Assembly: GCA_946641795.1 (NCBI GenBank)
Contig: CAMPBZ010000001.1
Location: 1 to 24,203 of the forward strand
Length of the DNA: 24,203 bases
DNA from: an uncultured Clostridia bacterium
GTDB taxonomy: Bacteria > Bacillota > Clostridia > Oscillospirales > CAG-272
Direction: 5' to 3'
The position numbers were made by a program, and so were the translations under genes. A model generated the notes under the pieces. It was not told the DNA's origin and made no database searches. It saw only the letters and a program-made list of their open reading frames with translations. Shown here piece by piece: positions 50 to 11,546 of this stretch (position 1 is the stretch's first letter; the number at the start of each line of letters is the position of its first letter).

Positions 50-192
50 CCGGGGGCTGAAAAGAGGGCCAGGCGAAGGGGACGGCGTGCGAGATGCGGT
101 CGAACGCAAGGCAGCAGGCAGGCGCCGAGGCGAGAAGCAGAGGGCGCGAGGCGGCTGGCGCGAGAAGCCTTTTGACCGGCAAAACAAAATAT

Positions 193-262
<70 letters not shown>

Positions 263-269
<7 letters not shown>

Positions 270-996: not shown

Positions 997-1022
997 GGGC
1001 ACCGCAACAGGATCGTGTGGTT
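997..1022 (+). repeat. Truncated tRNA-Met 3' fragment, left junction of the toxin cassette
   Basis: GGGCACCGCAACAGGATCGTGTGGTT is the same as 476-501 and stops abruptly in the T-loop. Confidence 0.9.
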
Positions 1023-1347
1023 ATTCTATGACGGTCACCGACGAATCCTCATTGACAATTTCAATTTGAATATCCTTTGCGAACATATCATCAGGATAGT
1101 GCTTAAACCTTTGCAAAATCTCAATCATTTTATCTGCGGCATCGTCAAATTTATCTCTAATGATTTCAAGTCCTATAATTGTAATGCGCATGGGGGTCCC
1201 ATACAGATCGGTCAAGCAATCCCAAAAAGCGGACCAGTTACAGCCATAATAATCCGGAAATTCAAGAGATTCTCGGATGACAAAATGCATTTCTAAATAA
1301 TATTTCACATTGTGGAAATCAATGGTATATTCTTTTCTTTTTTCCAT
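1021..1347 (-). CDS. Barstar-family RNase inhibitor (immunity protein), 108 aa
   Basis: FPDYYGCNWSAFWDCLTD aligns with barstar LPEYYGENLDALWDCLTG. SD GAGGAGG overlaps the upstream stop codon; ATG at 1347. Confidence 0.93.
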   Translation of the reverse strand: MEKRKEYTIDFHNVKYYLEMHFVIRESLEFPDYYGCNWSAFWDCLTDLYGTPMRITIIGLEIIRDKFDDAADKMIEILQRFKHYPDDMFAKDIQIEIVNEDSSVTVIE

Positions 1348-1357
1348 GTGGCCCTCC

Positions 1358-1930
1358 TCACTTTGTAATTTCATAAAATGTTTGGTAATGGTCGTATGTA
1401 ACAAAAATCAAACCGTCACTTGAATAAAGGATCCTTTGCCGATTTCGCTTTCCACCTGTGTAATTGATGTCGGCTTCATACCATATTCGCCCCGGCATAA
1501 ATGGGAGTTTCTGATCATCGTTTGTATAAATATCTCCGCCGATCATTTTGCCGGGCAAAACCTTATCTAATTTTTTGTGATTCGGTTTCCAGCCTTCAGA
1601 GTAGGCCTCTTTTTTGCTTACATAATAATTCGGTAACCGATTTAAATAATAGAGCTGGGCGTCTGCGCCGTTATATCCCATGTTGGTTGCACTTCCCGCA
1701 AGTTTTGTTCTCATCGGCACATAAATGCACTTACAATTCTCATGTGCGTTGACCTGGTCATTGTTTTCCAAAACAGAGATGTCGACGATCGTTCCGTGAT
1801 GGTCAACACAATATTTGCAGGTAGTGATGGTGAGTTGCGACTTCCAGTTTGCCCATTTGGAACTGTTACCCGCTAAATTCCTATCTTGTAAAAGATCGTT
1901 GATAAAAGTATCAACAAAATTTTCTTCCAT
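1358..1930 (-). CDS. Barnase-family ribonuclease toxin with an N-terminal MuF-like (phage head morphogenesis) Cys/His motif, 190 aa
   Basis: C-terminus IGGDIYTN..KLP..GRIWYEADINYTGGKRNRQRILYSSDGLIFVTYDHYQTF matches barnase, including catalytic E and H. N-terminus has TCKYC..HG..HENCKC. SD AAAGGAG; ATG at 1930. Confidence 0.92.
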   Translation of the reverse strand: MEENFVDTFINDLLQDRNLAGNSSKWANWKSQLTITTCKYCVDHHGTIVDISVLENNDQVNAHENCKCIYVPMRTKLAGSATNMGYNGADAQLYYLNRLPNYYVSKKEAYSEGWKPNHKKLDKVLPGKMIGGDIYTNDDQKLPFMPGRIWYEADINYTGGKRNRQRILYSSDGLIFVTYDHYQTFYEITK

Positions 1931-1943
1931 GTTTTCTCCTTTC

Positions 1944-1971
1944 ATTATATCATTTTTTTATTGCGTGTCAA
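1944..1971 (-). promoter_or_regulatory. Sigma-A promoter of the toxin-immunity cassette
   Basis: TTGACA (1971-1966), 16-nt spacer, TGaTATAAT (-10 at 1949-1944). Confidence 0.7.
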
Positions 1972-2353: not shown

Positions 2354-2427
2354 TAAAAAAATCACCCCCAAGAACGTATCTCGGGGGATATAGCCGGGCG
2401 GCGTCAGATCATGCGCCCGACCTCGCT
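2354..2427 (-). ncRNA. Candidate small RNA B (about 75 nt)
   Basis: Own promoter TTGACA-17-TGgTATTAT (2460-2432), a GUCGGGCG/CGCCCGGC hairpin, then a CCCCCGAGA/UCUUGGGGG hairpin with a U-tract. No real ORF. Confidence 0.55.
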
Positions 2428-2470
2428 GTTTATAATACCACAAAAAAACGGATTTGTCAATAGAAAAACA

Positions 2471-2532
2471 AAAAAAGTGACCGGGCGATTGGCAACCCGG
2501 TCATCACGGTTGCAAAAGCAGAGCCGTGTCCA
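2471..2532 (-). ncRNA. Candidate small RNA A (about 60 nt)
   Basis: Consensus promoter TTGACA-17-TGcTATAAT (2567-2539), a CACGG/CCGUG hairpin, then terminator UGACCGGG/CCCGGUCA with U7. Confidence 0.6.
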
Positions 2533-2577
2533 ATAATTATTATAGCATTGACGCCGCTATTTGTCAAGGCCTGATTT

Positions 2578-3570
2578 TTACTCCTTGTTATAAACGCTGC
2601 GGTACTTTTTGAGCGCGTAGTGGTAGTAGTTGCGCATAAAGATCCCCAGCCGTTTCGGGGAGAGGATAAGCGCGCTGTCGCCAAAGCGCTCAAAGTAGTA
2701 AAGCACCTGCTGGGCGGAGCATTCAAAGGTGTAAATGTCCTCTTCTATTTTTGTGGGTGTGGGACGGTATAGATAAATCTTTTCAAACAGAGCCTTTCCC
2801 TTTTCGGTCAATTGAACGCGAATGGGAACGTTGTCGGTTGCGTAAAGGGGATATTGCGCGCCGCAGGCGATCTGCCTTTCAAAAAGGTTGCGGCTTTCGG
2901 CCGGGAGTTCGGCTTTGTCGGGCAGCAGCGAGGCGGACTTGATTTTTGCCAGCCGCACCGTTGCGTTCCTGCTTCCGTCATAGAGCAAAACGTAGTTGAA
3001 AAGCTCGTCCTTGGAGGGCGCTACGGCATAAATTGAGCAATTGGAAACGACCTTTCCGTTCTCCAAAAAGAGGCAGACCTGCACGCCTTTGGCCACGGCG
3101 CGCGAAAGCAGCTCGTAGTTTTGCCGGAACAAAATTTTTTCCCGCTCGTTTTTGCTTTTCTTTGCGTAGGAAAGGAACAGGCGGCGGTAAAAAGCGGAAA
3201 GCGCCTCGCCCGAAAGCAGGACGTGCTCAATAAAATCGGTAACGTGCTCGGACTGTTTTGTGGGTTTGAAGGAAAGCGAAACGCCCTTGTGGCCGTACTG
3301 CTGTTTTTCCCGTCTGGCAAGCACCTGCAAAACGCCTTCCAAAGCCTCGCCGCGGTATTTTTCCGGCACCCGGAAAAGCGCCTTTTTCATTTCGTCGTGC
3401 AGTTCTTCCTCGCTCGCCGAAAACGCCTCGTAATCATTTACGATCAGCGTATTCAAAAAATCGTTGAGGTTTGGCGAGCGGTCTTTTTTGAAAAAGCGGA
3501 AATCGACGCAGTCTTTGCGCAGCAATTCCAGCGTTTCCTGCGGCAGTGTAAGTTTGATCTTTTCGGTCAT
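2578..3570 (-). CDS. WYL-domain protein of the WYL1 type (Cas13d accessory family) with an RHH-like N-terminus and WCX-like C-terminus, 330 aa
   Basis: EREKILF, FNYVL, VRLAKI, VQLTEKG..LFEKIYLYRP and QVLYYFERFG..ILSP parallel RspWYL1 motifs as I recall them. SD GGAGGTG; ATG at 3570. Confidence 0.8.
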   Translation of the reverse strand: MTEKIKLTLPQETLELLRKDCVDFRFFKKDRSPNLNDFLNTLIVNDYEAFSASEEELHDEMKKALFRVPEKYRGEALEGVLQVLARREKQQYGHKGVSLSFKPTKQSEHVTDFIEHVLLSGEALSAFYRRLFLSYAKKSKNEREKILFRQNYELLSRAVAKGVQVCLFLENGKVVSNCSIYAVAPSKDELFNYVLLYDGSRNATVRLAKIKSASLLPDKAELPAESRNLFERQIACGAQYPLYATDNVPIRVQLTEKGKALFEKIYLYRPTPTKIEEDIYTFECSAQQVLYYFERFGDSALILSPKRLGIFMRNYYHYALKKYRSVYNKE

Positions 3571-3592
3571 TCCAATCACCTCCTCTGAAATA

Positions 3593-3621
3593 ATTGTACC
3601 CAAAAAGGGGGCATTTGTCAA
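3593..3621 (-). promoter_or_regulatory. Sigma-A promoter of the WYL gene
   Basis: TTGACA-17-TACAAT on the minus strand. Confidence 0.75.
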
Positions 3622-3690
3622 TAGGAAAATGCGTATTTTCGCCTGTGTACTTGTTTTTTCGGTGGTCAAAAAATTCCGGAATACTGCCAG

Positions 3691-3719
3691 TTGTATTTTG
3701 TCGCTTTTTGGCATATAAT
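3691..3719 (+). promoter_or_regulatory. Sigma-A promoter of the DUF6847-like gene
   Basis: TTGTAT-17-TATAAT, with palindrome ATTCCGGAAT at 3673-3682 just upstream. Confidence 0.7.
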
Positions 3720-3752
3720 GGGGGCAAGAACAAAAACACGGAGGTGAAAAAT

Positions 3753-4238
3753 ATGAAAGTTTGTCACATGGAAGCAATGAAAGAAATCCGATTGCTGGAA
3801 GAGCAAAAGCAAATGGTGCTGGAAAAAGAGGAGGAAGGGTTCCGCGTATCCTATAAGGAAGGTGAAAGCAAAGTGGACACCGGCTACTCCTACCGGGAGA
3901 CCCGCGATCAGGTTGCCGCCCTGGACGCGCGCATCCGGCAGATCAAAAGCGCGCTGGCCAAGGCAAACTGCCTTTGCCGGTTGGAGGAATTTGACGTTAC
4001 CATTGGCGAAGCGCTCGTTTTGCTGGCGCAATGGAACGCCGAATACGCGCGGCTTTGCCGGCTTTCCTCCCAGCGGCAACTCTCCCGCCGCATTACCGCC
4101 AACGGCATACTGGAATACACGGAATGCTTATACGACGTGAAAGCGGTGGCCGAGGAGCGCAACTTGCTGAAACAACGCATCGGCGCGCTGCAAATTGCGA
4201 TTGACCGCGCCAATCTGCTTTCGCAAATCGAAATTTAA
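3753..4238 (+). CDS. Coiled-coil protein, DUF6847/DIP1984-like, 161 aa
   Basis: SD GGAGGTG. Helical pattern with SYKEGE, RIRQIKSALAKAN, TIGEAL, YDVK and a terminal LQIAIDRAN..IEI typical of this family (from memory). Confidence 0.6.
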   Translation: MKVCHMEAMKEIRLLEEQKQMVLEKEEEGFRVSYKEGESKVDTGYSYRETRDQVAALDARIRQIKSALAKANCLCRLEEFDVTIGEALVLLAQWNAEYARLCRLSSQRQLSRRITANGILEYTECLYDVKAVAEERNLLKQRIGALQIAIDRANLLSQIEI

Positions 4239-4475
4239 CGCATTTCCCAACCGCCCTTAACAGGCTGAACCCTTTTGGGTTTTGGCACCTCCTAAGGTAT
4301 AACTGATATTTTTGAATTGTTATCGTTGTGTTTTACAGTACGGGTCAAGGCTTATGGGTTGTGTTCTTGTAGTTGTTGGTTTATGGTTCAAGGGCTATGT
4401 CAAAAAACGACAAGATAAAATGCGGGTACGCATTTTTCATTGAGAAACGGGCGGTCAAAAGCTTTTGGTGGGGGA
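4239..4475 (+). ncRNA. Candidate structured 3' RNA with a G/U-rich 7-nt periodic tract
   Basis: ACCGCCC near the 5' end can pair with GGGCGGT near the 3' end. Small hairpins at 4268-4281 and 4417-4436; heptamer-phased tract at 4312-4395; no credible ORF. Confidence 0.45.
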
Positions 4476-4620
4476 AGCATGGGTCATATCCCATTTCCCG
4501 GTTCCCGCACCCCGCAGCAATCAAACGCACGCGACGGGATCAAATGAACGCGGCGCGGCGGCAAAGCGGGGCTGCAAAGGCGTTCAGCCGGGATCGACAA
4601 AACGAAAGGAAAAAACAAGA

Positions 4621-5985
4621 ATGAGCGAGTTAAACAGAATTGCCGGCTATGAAGCCGAAAAGCGGGAATTGCAAACATTGATTGAGATTTTTAACAATCG
4701 GGAAAAGTATCGCGAAAAAGGAGCAAGTTTACCAAAAGGAATTATATTTTACGGTAAATCCGGCACAGGAAAAACACTGTTTGCACAGGTGCTTGCCGCA
4801 GAGTGTACGCTGAAAGTGATTAAAGTGGATCTCCCGACAGCCGGCGAGCAGGATGTTTGTCGGTTGATCCGCAAGGCGTTCATCAAAGGCGCACGTTCAC
4901 GCAAGCCCACAATGATCTTTTTGGATGAGTTGGACAAACTTCTCCCAAATCAGCGCGAAGAATATTGCACCGATCAATCCAAGGCGGTGTTGACGCAACT
5001 GCTCACATTGATTGACGGGATGCACACCGTAGATGACATTGTATTTGTAGCGACCTGCAACGATTATGACGATCTACCGGAAAGTCTGACGCGTGCCGGC
5101 CGGTTTGACAAAAAAATTGCCCTGGGTCTTCCCTCTTTTTCTTCTCGTACGGCGATCCTGCGGCTCTATGCAAACGCATCCTCCTGTCAATTTGCGCTTG
5201 CCGCCGAAAACATTGCAAAACTTTGCACCGGCTTTTCCTGTGCGGCTTTGAAAACGCTGATCAACGAATGCGTGTTGCGTTCAGACGAGCACAATTTCAT
5301 CAGCGAAGAGTTAATTCGGGAAAAGGTGGCGGAAATTACCGACGAAGATCTTGTTTGCAAAAAGAGCGACGCAAGCAAAAGCGTGCAGGCAGCCCGCAAC
5401 ATTGGCTCCTTTCTCGTCTCTCGCGAATACAGCAAGAGCGATTACTTGCTCTCGCTGAACGAAAACACCGTTTGCAACGTCTTTCTTGACAGCGTAATTA
5501 CGGGCATTAATGACGAATATGACGATTATGATGACGACGAATACGATGATTATGATGTTGACGATGACGACAAGAAAGACGAAAAGACGAACGACCTGCC
5601 GATTTCCAAAAACGATTATCTTGCCGCCATCACGGCGCTGTTGGGCGGATATGCCGCAGAGGAGCTGTTGTTTCACAAAACGTACAACACACTTGATCAC
5701 TCTATGCGTAGCATCAAATACATCTTCTGCGAAATGGAAGAATGCGGTATGCTGGGGTGGCGGATGACATTCAAGTGCGACCATTCCGATTGTTCTTCTG
5801 ACCTCATGGAGCGCGAAGAGGCGCTTTTTGAGCAAATCGTTACCGAATGTTACGAAGCGGCAAAAGCAACGGTTACGAAGAACGAGCGGCTGATCAAAGA
5901 ATTAATCCCCGTTCTGATCCGGCGTGAAAGCATTGAAAAAGAGGAATGCGAGCAGATCCTTGCCGGACTTGGTGGCGTTGACTGA
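4621..5985 (+). CDS. Soluble FtsH-like AAA+ ATPase with a degenerate M41-like domain, 454 aa
   Basis: Walker A GKSGTGKT, Walker B IFLDE, SRH ATCN..RAGRFD, and M41-like ALLGGYAAEEL. No TM segment and no HEXXH motif. Confidence 0.85.
   Translation: MSELNRIAGYEAEKRELQTLIEIFNNREKYREKGASLPKGIIFYGKSGTGKTLFAQVLAAECTLKVIKVDLPTAGEQDVCRLIRKAFIKGARSRKPTMIFLDELDKLLPNQREEYCTDQSKAVLTQLLTLIDGMHTVDDIVFVATCNDYDDLPESLTRAGRFDKKIALGLPSFSSRTAILRLYANASSCQFALAAENIAKLCTGFSCAALKTLINECVLRSDEHNFISEELIREKVAEITDEDLVCKKSDASKSVQAARNIGSFLVSREYSKSDYLLSLNENTVCNVFLDSVITGINDEYDDYDDDEYDDYDVDDDDKKDEKTNDLPISKNDYLAAITALLGGYAAEELLFHKTYNTLDHSMRSIKYIFCEMEECGMLGWRMTFKCDHSDCSSDLMEREEALFEQIVTECYEAAKATVTKNERLIKELIPVLIRRESIEKEECEQILAGLGGVD
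5509..5580 (+). repeat. Low-complexity Asp/Tyr-rich coding repeat
   Basis: Encodes NDEYDDYDDDEYDDYDVDDDDKKD. Confidence 0.85.
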
Positions 5986-6096: not shown

Positions 6097-6966
6097 GTGG
6101 AAGCGTTCTTTTATGACCTGCCGGCCGAAACCGCGGCGCTGTGCGAGGAGATCGTAGACTATGCCACGCAGGTCTGGCACCTGCCGATGGAAGAACAGGA
6201 AAATTTTTTGGGGTTTGGAAAAAGCCGCAGCTTTTATCTGTTTTGGATGGCGCGCAAAGAGGATTACAATTATTTCAAGGCGCGGCGCACCTGCTCCTAC
6301 CGGCAAGCCGACGGCTTTGTAGATTGCGAACTGTGCGCCGAAAACCGGGAGCGCATTTTGGAAGCGATCGACGCGATTTGCAAAAGCCGCGAAGAGCGCC
6401 GGAATGCGCCGCGCGTTCGCGCGGAAAAGCCGAATGAGCCCGACCCCTGGCAGGCGGCAACGGCGCGGGCGTGGGAACTCTACCGCCAAAATCCGCCGTC
6501 CGAAATTGCGGCGTTCTTCCGGAATGCAAAAGCCTTCTCCACACTTGCCGACCGGCAGTTGCAGGCCGTGCTCCGCGCGGTCAACGGGAGGAACGCCCGA
6601 AGAGACGCGACAATTTGGAAAAAATATATTCTTACCGACGAGGCCACGCTGGAAAGCATTGGGAACGAATACAATCTTTCCCGCGAGCGGGTGCGGCAGG
6701 TCGTCAAGCGCGCGGACGAAAGGATTGATTATCTCTTTCATCACCACGGCCGGTACGACGGCACCGGCGAGTTTCGCGACCGCGCCGAGCAAATGGCCGC
6801 TCTGCTGGAAAGCGCCGGCGGGGCGCTGCCCTTCTTTTTCAATCTTGCGTTTGCCGCCTGGGGGAGCCGCAAAAAAGAATGGTTCCTTCGCCTTTTGTTT
6901 GGCAAGGAGAACGGTGCCGCGCTCTTCAAGGCCTGCGCCGCGGCGCAAAATCCGGCGGAGCTTTGA
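6097..6966 (+). CDS. Hypothetical protein with a sigma-70 region-4-like HTH, 289 aa
   Basis: TLESIGNEYNLSRERVRQV motif; GTG start with SD GAGGGGG. No sigma region 2 recognised. Confidence 0.7.
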   Translation: MEAFFYDLPAETAALCEEIVDYATQVWHLPMEEQENFLGFGKSRSFYLFWMARKEDYNYFKARRTCSYRQADGFVDCELCAENRERILEAIDAICKSREERRNAPRVRAEKPNEPDPWQAATARAWELYRQNPPSEIAAFFRNAKAFSTLADRQLQAVLRAVNGRNARRDATIWKKYILTDEATLESIGNEYNLSRERVRQVVKRADERIDYLFHHHGRYDGTGEFRDRAEQMAALLESAGGALPFFFNLAFAAWGSRKKEWFLRLLFGKENGAALFKACAAAQNPAEL

Positions 6967-10087: not shown

Positions 10088-10711
10088 TTAGTTATCATCA
10101 TCGGGGTGTTTGATGCTTTTGACAAGGGCAAACGGATAAACGAAAACCGAAACCACAAGCCCTACGGCAACGGCAAGCAGGAGCAGTGCAATGGAAATCA
10201 GAATGCTCAACACAAGCAAGCCCAGTTTAACGGTTAAAAACCAGACAATGCCATCCAGGCTCAACCCGAAGATAACGCCCGGCATACGAATACTGCGACT
10301 TGCAATTCCAACGATCAGGTCGCCCACAAAGTTGTTTGAAAGCAACAGGCAGGAAATTAACGTAAAGGTGAGAATAGGGGTCACGACCCCTACGGCGATC
10401 AGCGAAGGGGTTTTGAAAATGCCCGTAGCAATCATAATTGCAAGAACCACCGCCGCGCCGAGGCCGCCGAGAATATAGGACCACATCCTGCGCTTTGCGG
10501 CGGTAGCGGCCGCCTGCCGCGCGTTTTCTTCCTTCATTTTTGCCTCGCATTGCGCGCAATGATAATACTGGCGAGAGCTGCGGAGGTTGTAATGATGAAT
10601 GACCAGATCCTCTTTTCTGTAAATGGGGTTTTTGCATCTTTCGCAAATGCCAAGCGGCGGTGTTTGCGGAGTTTGGGGGGCGGCTTGCGTTTGATTTTCT
10701 TCGTTTGCCAT
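10088..10711 (-). CDS. Membrane protein with an N-terminal CxxC..HCxxC Zn-binding motif, 207 aa
   Basis: CERC...YHCAQC followed by several hydrophobic helices. SD AAGAGAGG; upstream promoter TTGACA-17-TAAAAT (10790-10762). Confidence 0.75.
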   Translation of the reverse strand: MANEENQTQAAPQTPQTPPLGICERCKNPIYRKEDLVIHHYNLRSSRQYYHCAQCEAKMKEENARQAAATAAKRRMWSYILGGLGAAVVLAIMIATGIFKTPSLIAVGVVTPILTFTLISCLLLSNNFVGDLIVGIASRSIRMPGVIFGLSLDGIVWFLTVKLGLLVLSILISIALLLLAVAVGLVVSVFVYPFALVKSIKHPDDDN

Positions 10712-10849
10712 TGTAAAAACCTCTCTTTTTCCTTTCAATTTGCCGTCAGCCGGCATATCTTATTTTATCCTACTTTATAAGATTTGTCAATATTAAATCG
10801 CATATTTGATTATAATAGTAGAAAAAGGAAAGGTTTTTAAGGTGATGCG

Positions 10850-11005
10850 ATGAAGCCGCTGAAAGAAAAAATCAGTATCACGATCGATGGCGACATTTTG
10901 GAGAAAATCAGAGTTTTGGCGGAGGACGACGACCGCTCCCTTTCCCAGTTTATCAACCTTATTCTGAAAGAGTATTTGAAGCAAACGCAGACCGCCGGAA
11001 AATAA
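10850..11005 (+). CDS. Small ribbon-helix-helix (CopG-like) protein, 51 aa, absent from the ORF track
   Basis: My translation is MKPLKEKISITIDGDILEKIRVLAEDDDRSLSQFINLILKEYLKQTQTAGK; SD AAGGTG. Confidence 0.85.
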   Translation: MKPLKEKISITIDGDILEKIRVLAEDDDRSLSQFINLILKEYLKQTQTAGK

Positions 11006-11037
11006 AAGCACCGGCCGGCAATGCCGGCATTTTGCGC

Positions 11038-11070
11038 AAAAAAGAGGCGATTTTCAATCGCCTCTTTTTT
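11038..11070. terminator. Bidirectional terminator
   Basis: AAAAAAGAGGCGATT-ttc-AATCGCCTCTTTTTT. Confidence 0.85.
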
Positions 11071-11291
11071 TATTTTGCCGCAGTTCCCTGCGGGTCGTTG
11101 GTCAAGCCCGCAAGAAAATCCAGCGATACGTGATACAGCTTTGCCAATGCAATGGCAATGTCAAACGGAACTTCCCGCTGGCCGCTTTCATAACGTTGGT
11201 AAGTGGTTTTATATAATCCTACCAATTCGGCGGCGCGGGCTTGCGATAAATCGTGATCCTCGCGCAAATCGCGAATTCGTGTGTACATCAT
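11070..11291 (-). CDS. XRE-family HTH regulator, copy 2
   Basis: RIRDLREDHDLSQ...TTYQRYESGQREVP..IAIALAKLYHVSLDFLAG. Confidence 0.9.
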   Translation of the reverse strand: MMYTRIRDLREDHDLSQARAAELVGLYKTTYQRYESGQREVPFDIAIALAKLYHVSLDFLAGLTNDPQGTAAK

Positions 11292-11420
11292 AATACAATC
11301 ATACCCCTCCGTGCGGGTCGTTGGTCAAGCCCGCAAGAAAATCCAGCGATACGTGATACAGCTTTGCCAATGCAATGGCAATGTCAAACGGAACTTCCCG
11401 CTGGCCGCTTTCATAACGTT
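11089..11420. repeat. 109-bp perfect direct repeat (11089-11197 and 11312-11420)
   Basis: Base-by-base identity of the C-terminal halves of the two XRE genes. Confidence 0.95.
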
Positions 11421-11514
11421 TATATGTGGTGGTATGAAGCCCAATCAATTCTGCGGTTCGTGCCTGCGTCAAATCATTGTCTTCGCGTAAGTCGCGGATC
11501 CTTGCATACTTCAT
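11299..11514 (-). CDS. XRE-family HTH regulator, copy 1
   Basis: RIRDLREDNDLTQ...TTYKRYESGQREVP; SD GAGGTG. Confidence 0.9.
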   Translation of the reverse strand: MKYARIRDLREDNDLTQARTAELIGLHTTTYKRYESGQREVPFDIAIALAKLYHVSLDFLAGLTNDPHGGV

Positions 11515-11546
11515 CCTTCATCACCTCGGAATTATTCTATCCAGAA

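Follow-up and report, generated by a model that had tools for sequence, protein, structure and literature searches.

The stretch of DNA analysed here, referred to throughout as the window, is a 24,203-nt contig from an uncultured Clostridia bacterium. Within it lies a gene encoding a 330-aa protein of the WYL1 family, divergent from a DUF6847-family gene, a structured non-coding RNA and a gene for a protease-dead, FtsH-like AAA+ ATPase. From published work, WYL1 is known solely in Cas13d loci (PMC5935466, PMC6547453). The circuit in the window is not a CRISPR accessory. We propose, with a probability of about 0.6, that it is a mobile WYL1-type sensor-regulator circuit, whose role in the family would be to switch on cargo responding to RNA damage, in a manner analogous to RtcR, the regulator of RNA-repair operons (PMC4012209, PMC7790460). 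Three elements of this work are new: the association between the WYL1-like family and cargo that includes RtcB and Ro-like proteins, the pairing of DUF6847 with an RNA backed by covariation and expression evidence, and the tests of independence from Cas13d.

The WYL1-family protein and its independence from Cas13d

An earlier, sequence-only reading of this region had named WYL1 as the closest relative of the 330-aa protein, and this was borne out both by profile and by fold. RspWYL1 (PDB 6OAW) was the sole PDB match of the protein (phmmer E 5.4e-5). A profile of 55 family members matched 6oaw over its full length (E 6.8e-28, positions 7-329 against 26-390), while the next PDB matches of the same profile, PafBC-like proteins, reached E 0.45. 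The CRISPR-type WYL model of PADLOC matched at E 2e-5; searches of Pfam and NCBIfam gave no WYL match, and Pfam gave no helix-turn-helix (HTH) match. In the AlphaFold2 model of the protein, which has a predicted local distance difference test (pLDDT) value of 94.3, residues 5-66 and 97-136 form strand-helix-helix units and residues ~163-219 a barrel, after which comes a C-terminal domain. The strands of the two ribbon-helix-helix (RHH) units correspond to residues 5-9 and 97-101, and the WYL barrel is Sm-like. Foldseek again placed 6oaw first (E 1.5e-15, 374-378 aligned columns, TM 0.67), with the generic WYL regulators far behind: PafBC, DriD, CapW and BrxR aligned to the WYL part alone, with E values of 1e-6 to 1e-2. 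The 330-aa protein is thus a true member of the WYL1 family by sequence profile and fold. This family comprises 995 clusters at 50% identity (E <= 1e-3), nearly all of 320-350 aa and matching end to end, in which Lys4 and Lys6 of the first RHH strand are nearly invariant.

RspWYL1 consists of a double-RHH N-terminal domain, an Sm-like WYL domain and a dimerising C-terminal domain. It prefers single-stranded RNA (ssRNA), which it binds with high affinity through the RHH2 arginines R131/R133 and lysines of the WYL and C-terminal domains, binds double-stranded DNA (dsDNA) poorly, and stimulates Cas13d (PMC6547453). The window protein is homologous to RspWYL1 over its full length and has the same three-part build, in which two RHH units are joined to an Sm-like WYL barrel and to a domain for dimerisation at the C-terminus. 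It differs in length (330 versus 392 aa) and in sequence (~17% identity in the structural alignment), it has neither cas13d nor a CRISPR array nearby or in carrier genomes, and the RHH2 arginines of RspWYL1 do not appear to be kept, in a stretch where the alignment is weak. Moreover, while RspWYL1 is a reported ssRNA binder that stimulates Cas13d, the window protein has conserved operator boxes in its own and the divergent promoter. In this last respect, it resembles the HTH-WYL-WCX regulators PafBC, DriD, CapW and BrxR, the first three of which sense single-stranded DNA (ssDNA). As in those regulators, there is a conserved operator in the protein's own or neighbouring promoter (two phased boxes in 40/62 unique loci), and the likeness would extend to a WYL sensor joined to a DNA-binding domain, autoregulation, a neighbouring stress or defence operon and a single-stranded nucleic acid as signal. 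Unlike them, the window protein has a double RHH instead of a winged HTH, and its cargo differs.

Since the nearest relative of the protein among solved structures is WYL1, an accessory of Cas13d, the gene might be a detached Cas13d accessory with its effector elsewhere in the genome, which could have been missed because the MAG (metagenome-assembled genome) is 71% complete and CRISPR arrays assemble poorly. We regard this explanation as largely refuted and very improbable. NCBIfam models found no Cas13a, Cas13b or Cas13d in this MAG, and a k-mer scan found no CRISPR array in it. With model NF038189, Cas13d was absent from the 14 other family carriers among 399 class genomes, and it was likewise absent from five genomes with close WYL homologues. 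The only Cas13d among the 399 genomes was found in G654 (NF038189 E 8e-271), which is a non-carrier of the WYL1-like family; its locus served as positive control for both the Cas13d model and the array scan, which recovered its 9-repeat array. The size of the family (~1000 clusters at 50% identity) and the fact that it has conserved partners and operators of its own also speak against a stray accessory gene. The absence of cas13 and CRISPR noted earlier for the window therefore holds for the MAG as well, where no cas13d was found that could explain the WYL gene. The G654 locus (L097, G654:C7 7926-12480) encodes a 903-aa effector next to 9 repeats with a period of ~67 bp, and there is no WYL1-like gene within ~7 kb of it. 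In the MAG itself, three tandem units of ~79 bp on contig C145 (3005-3240), each with a GC-rich hairpin (GCCCCGCAGTGCGGGGAGCC), were considered as a CRISPR array and rejected because whole units are repeated and there are no unique spacers.

Operator boxes and gene partners of the WYL1-like family

The motif TTTTG(A/C)CCCC(T) is common to the intergenic regions of all WYL1-like subfamilies. In nearly all of 62 unique loci, a proximal box lies 37-47 bp upstream of the WYL start codon, between the -35 and -10 elements of the regulator's own promoter. Two boxes are present in 40 of these loci, spaced by 44/45, 55/56, 76/77 or 86/87 bp, which by their sequence spacing are steps of about one helical turn. 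The window follows this pattern (Table 1): 55 bp separate its distal box from the proximal one, and 23 bp separate it from the weak cargo -35, which lies downstream of it. When the whole genome was searched loosely for the box, the 74 matches, mostly intragenic, were uninformative. The back-to-back sigma-A promoters of the sequence-only reading stood in part. The WYL promoter is a close match, and the cargo promoter has a perfect -10 that is conserved across loci (CATTATA on the WYL strand), but its -35 matches at just 3/6 positions, below the threshold of the promoter scan, and the promoter is sigma-A like at the -10 alone. Since two phased boxes are conserved in the divergent intergenic region, the WYL1-like protein looks like a DNA-binding regulator.

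We compared the neighbourhoods of 41 species-level loci with 47-78%-identical WYL homologues, which together with the window make 42. In 34/42 loci, the WYL1-like gene has the AAA+ gene immediately beside it in divergent orientation; the next commonest neighbour family occurs in seven, and the flanks are otherwise unrelated. Apart from the window, only its nearest relatives (L006-L008, 77% identity) have DUF6847 wedged between regulator and AAA+ gene. Elsewhere, its homologues are divergent from a different WYL1-like subfamily, ~34% identical to the window WYL protein. The idea of a single co-evolving module made up of regulator, DUF6847, RNAs and AAA+ gene was accordingly not upheld: the co-occurrence of AAA+ gene and regulator is widespread, and is the only widely conserved partnership of this subfamily, whereas DUF6847 and its RNA accompany this regulator only in the window and its nearest relatives, DUF6847 being usually found with the other subfamily and RtcB. 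The WYL1-like gene was found in none of 300 genomes of the MAG's own order and in 5/201 genomes of the order of one carrier. This patchy distribution, together with low GC, points to a horizontally mobile regulator locus.

Across the family, the cargo is repeatedly connected with RNA repair. RtcB is directly divergent from the WYL1-like gene in L048. In L059 and L061, the divergent genes are a DUF2828+DUF7788/vWA protein followed by RtcB; we take the DUF2828-vWA protein to be Ro-like, the Pfam domains alone having been confirmed in our analysis. RtcB also comes after DUF6847 in at least four lineages (L050-L055, L076, L085/86). With RtcB, the presumed Ro-like DUF2828-vWA protein and the DUF6847-RNA pair among its contexts, the RNA-centred setting suggested earlier is supported, and the WYL1-like family as a whole is, on the evidence of gene order, wired to RNA-repair cargo. 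We also noted tRNA-like T-arm sequences, GGATTCGAACCTGC / GGAGTCGAACCCGC, upstream of the WYL1-like gene in L059, L060 and L061, and also in L019 and L033. They separate the regulator from its cargo, which is either the Ro-like DUF2828-vWA protein or the AAA+ protein; where the cargo is Ro-like, they may be Y-RNA-like or tRNA-like RNAs.

This arrangement invites comparison with the RtcR-controlled rtcBA and rsr-yrlBA-rtcBA operons of E. coli and Salmonella. In both cases, a regulator that senses a ligand, or in our case would do so, is divergent from RNA-repair cargo; in the WYL1-like family, RtcB, a Ro-like protein and a structured RNA dedicated to the system are among the cargo. The sensor is of a different kind, RHH-WYL rather than CARF with a sigma-54 AAA+ domain and HTH, and the promoters are of sigma-A type. 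The window itself is without RtcB, RtcA and Ro. Neither Y RNA nor any other Rfam family matches its RNA, whose protein partner would be DUF6847. By analogy, the locus most likely follows the logic of an RtcR operon.

The DUF6847 gene and its structured RNA

The 161-aa coiled-coil protein has 248 homologues. It does not match Pfam DUF6847 (PF20935) even at E <= 10, but two homologues of the same length that are 55-56% identical to it (P0332 and P0340) score 28.3 and 28.1 bits against a cut-off of 27. This supports the earlier assignment, and the protein is, by these intermediates, a divergent DUF6847. Its AlphaFold2 model (pLDDT 94.6) has a fold like that of PDB 3kdq, a structure of unknown function (TM 0.70-0.73); the other fold matches are unnamed AlphaFold clusters. 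No DUF6847 was found in IMG/VR viral contigs, and a literature search for 'DUF6847' returned nothing.

A conserved RNA element follows every DUF6847 gene examined. A nucleotide hidden Markov model (nhmmer) found it in 37 places, all behind DUF6847, including a single one in the MAG (4243-4506), and in none of ~50 examined loci lacking DUF6847. The structured periodic tract that the sequence-only reading had placed behind the coiled-coil gene is therefore real. Its consensus runs from a UUYCC element through the first strand of a stem P1, a G/U-rich internal domain and the P1 return strand to AAAAACUU, sometimes an extra hairpin, and a hairpin P2. The internal domain spans 90-240 nt across relatives and has conserved GGUUUAYCGUU-like blocks. 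The P2 loop is conserved as GAAGUAnnGGGUUAYA, or as GARGUUCGGUUUSA in one group. GUU triplets are enriched in the internal domain of 18/20 sequences, with successive spacings of mostly 6-7 nt, a periodicity that would suit a repeated register for protein binding. In most loci, a U-run terminator follows P2; since none does so in the window, the window RNA may run into the leader of the AAA+ gene.

Both stems covary, as determined by our own anchored duplex tests. The sequence of P1 differs in almost every lineage yet always pairs, with 4-6 pair types at each of its first seven positions. Cognate P1 strands form a duplex of -16.6 kcal/mol versus -7.8 kcal/mol for non-cognate ones (Mann-Whitney p 1.4e-10), and the cognate strand ranked first in 13/20 cases. 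For P2, the corresponding values are -10.9 and -6.4 kcal/mol (p 4e-6). When the window copy is folded by itself, its minimum free energy (MFE) structure contains P1; the overall z is just -1.9. No Rfam 15 match was found at E <= 5 over 4239-4620 or in L052, including to Y RNA / YrlA, tRNA-like RNAs and riboswitches, and this is apparently an undescribed RNA family.

The element goes with DUF6847 rather than being the leader of one particular gene, because the genes downstream of it vary. In many loci, the following gene is unrelated or on the opposite strand. SpoVT/AbrB-like, MurJ-like flippase and DUF308 genes are among those found there and look unrelated to the pair, which fits with the RNA ending at a terminator in most loci. 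Several loci have proteins of 324-351 aa behind the pair for which there was no Pfam, PDB or Atlas match. In L049, an ADP-ribosylglycohydrolase gene (10642-11538 (+); PF03747, E 7e-35) lies ~1 kb behind the pair, where other loci have RtcB, with a 100-aa opposite-strand ORF in between. Read-through control is possible where RtcB or the AAA+ gene follows the RNA.

The RNA is also present in RNA libraries. Metatranscriptome contigs of 161-213 nt, 99-100% identical to the window, were found in four ruminant-gut runs from four studies, at 4326-4538, 4255-4437, 4293-4454 and 4265-4478. The same four runs had no contig on the coding sequence of DUF6847 or of the AAA+ protein and one in the WYL gene. 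When the RNA alone was used as the query, five RNA runs of four studies held 34-69% of its words. Since four independent contigs fall in the same 12% of the stretch, these data argue for an RNA that is stable and comparatively abundant in vivo.

RspWYL1 has a high affinity for ssRNA and binds dsDNA poorly (PMC6547453), and a G/U-rich domain with GUU every 6-7 nt would suit an Sm-like or oligomeric binder; the WYL1-like protein might therefore not be a transcription factor but bind the GUU-repeat tract post-transcriptionally. We consider this improbable. The RNA is absent from 34 loci that have only regulator and AAA+ gene and is in one-to-one correspondence with DUF6847, every subfamily has conserved, phased DNA boxes overlapping the two promoters, and the lysines in the first RHH strand are near-invariant. 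The earlier proposal of a ribonucleoprotein (RNP) regulated by WYL1 was not supported in that form, since the RNA tracks DUF6847 and not WYL; at best, there would be a DUF6847-RNA particle under transcriptional control of WYL1 type. Burroughs and Aravind are said to have predicted, in 2016, RNA-repair scaffolds of comparable design, namely Ro60 (Rsr) with Y RNA and Band-7 with a tRNA-like RNA. As in those systems, a small protein gene adjoins a dedicated structured RNA, recurrently beside RtcB. Unlike their proteins, DUF6847 is an unrelated four-helix protein, and its RNA has an architecture of its own. Tentatively, DUF6847 and the GUU-repeat RNA could form a new RNP, an analogue of Ro60/Y RNA that acts with RtcB or the pseudo-FtsH in controlling damage to RNA or ribosomes, the WYL1-like family being the Firmicute counterpart of RtcR from which Cas13d later borrowed WYL1; we hold this to be possible rather than likely.

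Two further transcription units without ORFs had been proposed just behind the WYL gene as part of the same module. Their promoter and terminator motifs are indeed present, and the region has seven promoter-like sites compared to 2.5 ± 1.5 in shuffled sequences. The predicted RNAs would be ~65-70 nt. The units are conserved nowhere: no counterpart was found in any related locus and no second copy in the MAG, and in L006-L008 a 90-aa ORF comes after the WYL stop in place of unit 1. Metatranscriptomes contained no RNA contigs on them, although they are too short to assemble. The hairpin of unit 1 may do no more than terminate transcription of the WYL gene. We do not count the units as part of the system, and the membership of unit 2 is doubtful.

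Table 1. Features of the proposed WYL1-type circuit and its surroundings, in window coordinates
Feature	Position	Strand	Details
tRNA-Met	192-268		low-GC 2-6 kb stretch lies just past it
Barnase-family ribonuclease and overlapping barstar immunity gene	1021-1945	-	PF00545 E 9e-11; PF01337 E 8e-16
ORF-less unit 2	2355..2460	-	TTGACA-17-TATTAT (2460..2432), 11/12; hairpin and T-run (2387..2365, T-run to ~2355); fold z -3.56
ORF-less unit 1	2468..2567	-	TTGACA-17-TATAAT (2567..2539), 12/12 with TG; hairpin and T-run (2503..2478); fold z -3.38
WYL1-family protein gene, 330 aa	2578..3570	-	ribosome-binding site GGAGGTG; predicted sensor-regulator
WYL gene promoter	3593..3621	-	TTGACA-17-TACAAT; 11/12 match
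Proximal operator box	3596-3613		imperfect palindrome in WYL promoter spacer; core TGCCCCC 3607-3613; consensus TTgattTtTGcCCCCTTTTnGtGTACaAT
Distal operator box	3653..3675	-	core TGACCAC 3662-3668 between T and A runs
Cargo promoter	3691..3719	+	weak -35 TTGTAT 3691-3696; 17-bp spacer; perfect -10 TATAAT 3714-3719
DUF6847-family coiled-coil gene, 161 aa	3753..4238	+	four long helices and short strands
DUF6847-linked structured non-coding RNA	4242..~4540	+	~260-300 nt; 3' end ~4500-4540
RNA 5' element	4243-4248		UUUCCC
P1 stem	4250-4256 and 4450-4456		ACCGCCC paired with GGGCGGU
RNA internal domain	~4300-4400		G/U-rich; GUU repeats every 6-7 nt
Element 3' of P1 return strand	4458-4465		AAAAGCUU
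P2 hairpin loop	4474-4488		conserved loop GAAGCAUGGGUCAUA
Soluble FtsH-like AAA+ ATPase gene, 454 aa	4621..5985	+	start 4621, not 4622
ORF resembling sigma-70 region 4	6097-6966	+	PF04545 E 1.3e-6; 3' of AAA+ gene

The AAA+ gene, its setting and the proposed circuit

The AAA+ protein has a clear AAA domain (PF00004 E 1.4e-26), which starts at residue 5, and its Walker A/B and arginine-finger regions are conserved in 35 family members. With FtsH, an AAA+ / M41 zinc protease, it shares the classical-clade AAA+ module (Walker A/B and second region of homology) and the helical C-terminal half of M41, the Peptidase_M41 match covering this half only (profile positions 54-191). Unlike FtsH, it lacks a transmembrane N-terminus, the zinc ligands and the conserved aromatic residue of the pore loop, and it has a conserved Asp/Tyr-rich acidic insert at about residues 297-316. 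Its score against TIGR01241 (FtsH) is 149.5, with a cut-off of 600. The zinc site is lost family-wide: A-(A/C)-R-N-x-G-x-F stands where FtsH has HEXXH, and the Asp that serves as third ligand is also gone, being Thr in the window protein. These substitutions confirm, at the level of motifs, the earlier view that the protein is catalytically protease-dead.

The window is the entire 24.2-kb contig, one of 177 in a 1.2-Mb MAG with a GC content of 0.549, and the DNA runs in which it is contained were made from the gut or rumen of bovines, goats and sheep. GC is ~0.49 at 2-6 kb and 0.58-0.60 in the flanks. The 3' end of the tRNA-Met and its flank are repeated directly three times (263-427, 723-916 and 2125-2318; 165-194 bp, 95-99% identical), and the second and third copies bracket a low-GC (0.385) barnase/barstar cassette. 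These repeats look like attachment-site (att)-type duplications left by successive insertions at the tRNA, and the region looks like an insertion hot spot. The N-terminal part of the barnase protein weakly resembles proteins of phage head morphogenesis (phrog_4728, E 4e-4). Ahead of the barnase gene is a perfect TTGACA-16-TATAAT promoter (1971..1944), so the gene probably starts at the ATG at 1930. Four copies of TGTGCCA, ~11 bp apart at 2010-2080, shortly precede the third att-like repeat; they could be arm sites or iterons to which a protein binds. At the other end, L006-L008 have a 529-aa homologue (37-41% identity) of the sigma-70-region-4-like ORF at the same place, and this ORF may belong to the module in the sub-lineage formed by the window and L006-L008.

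Such a setting is also what would be expected of an anti-phage or abortive-infection island, in which the WYL1-like protein would be a repressor of BrxR/CapW type that silences, until infection, an AAA+ effector of toxic or defensive action, which DUF6847 and the RNA would assist. The distribution is patchy and island-like, GC is low, the tRNA-Met has att-like repeats and a barnase/barstar cassette adjoins; WYL regulators, moreover, often guard defence systems (PMC9122601, PMC9122588). We nevertheless judge this explanation unlikely. The AAA+ protein partially matches models of the anti-phage ATPases IetA/IteA, but the score is far under the cut-off (NF042959, 71 vs 510 bits), the PADLOC IetA match (E 3e-22) covers only the generic AAA part, and there is no IetS-type S8 protease partner beside the gene; we therefore rejected IetAS / IteA as an identity. 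PADLOC finds no system member apart from the generic WYL model, DUF6847 was not found in the viral contigs of IMG/VR, and the cargo of the family is RNA repair (RtcB, Ro-like), not nucleases or other effectors. The defence explanation also overlaps with an RNA-damage circuit, since RNA repair can counter RNase toxins.

In the RNA-damage circuit that we favour, a dimer of the regulator would bind the two phased TTTTG(A/C)CCCC boxes in the 182-bp divergent region. Autorepression is suggested because the proximal box sits inside the spacer of the regulator's own promoter, and ligand-dependent control of the cargo, probably activation, because the weak cargo -35 comes directly after the distal box. 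By analogy with RspWYL1 (ssRNA) and with PafBC, DriD and CapW (ssDNA), the WYL/C-terminal surface would sense a single-stranded nucleic acid, most likely RNA fragments arising from RNA damage. The cargo transcript would comprise the DUF6847 protein, the ~260-300-nt structured RNA and the protease-dead FtsH-like AAA+ ATPase. As for their roles, the DUF6847-RNA pair may act as an RNA chaperone or scaffold particle and the ATPase as a remodelling enzyme in RNA or ribosome quality control. In this view, the window is a composite: a DUF6847-RNA cassette, which in other places opens RtcB operons under the sister subfamily, was inserted between the members of the regulator/AAA+ pair that is ancestral in this subfamily.

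Several observations weigh against this proposal. A tblastn search of the window and of the MAG (71% complete) turned up neither RtcB nor another RNA-repair enzyme, which means that the RNA-repair link of the window is by family association only, and what the regulator's own subfamily has as cargo is an AAA+ protein without a known function. According to published data, RspWYL1 disfavours dsDNA (PMC6547453), and it is from the conserved boxes only that DNA binding by its relative in the window is predicted. The RspWYL1 strand carrying R131/R133 corresponds to Ser/Ser in the window protein, in a low-confidence stretch of the profile alignment. For the RNA, RNAalifold predicted no pairs on a plain MAFFT alignment of 22 sequences, a result explained by the variable internal domain, which puts the P1 strands out of register. 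The metatranscriptome contigs reveal neither strand, ends nor level of the RNA, and carry-over of DNA is possible.

These findings place WYL1, known solely as a helper of Cas13d, as one outlier of a non-CRISPR family of ~1000 clusters found mainly in gut Clostridia, and they provide a plausible origin for its ssRNA binding. A regulator and a context can now be assigned to a conserved FtsH-like ATPase that is protease-dead, and DUF6847, a domain of unknown function, gains a linked structured RNA with covariation and in-vivo expression evidence. For bacteria without RtcR, the circuit would offer a testable answer to the question of what senses RNA damage.

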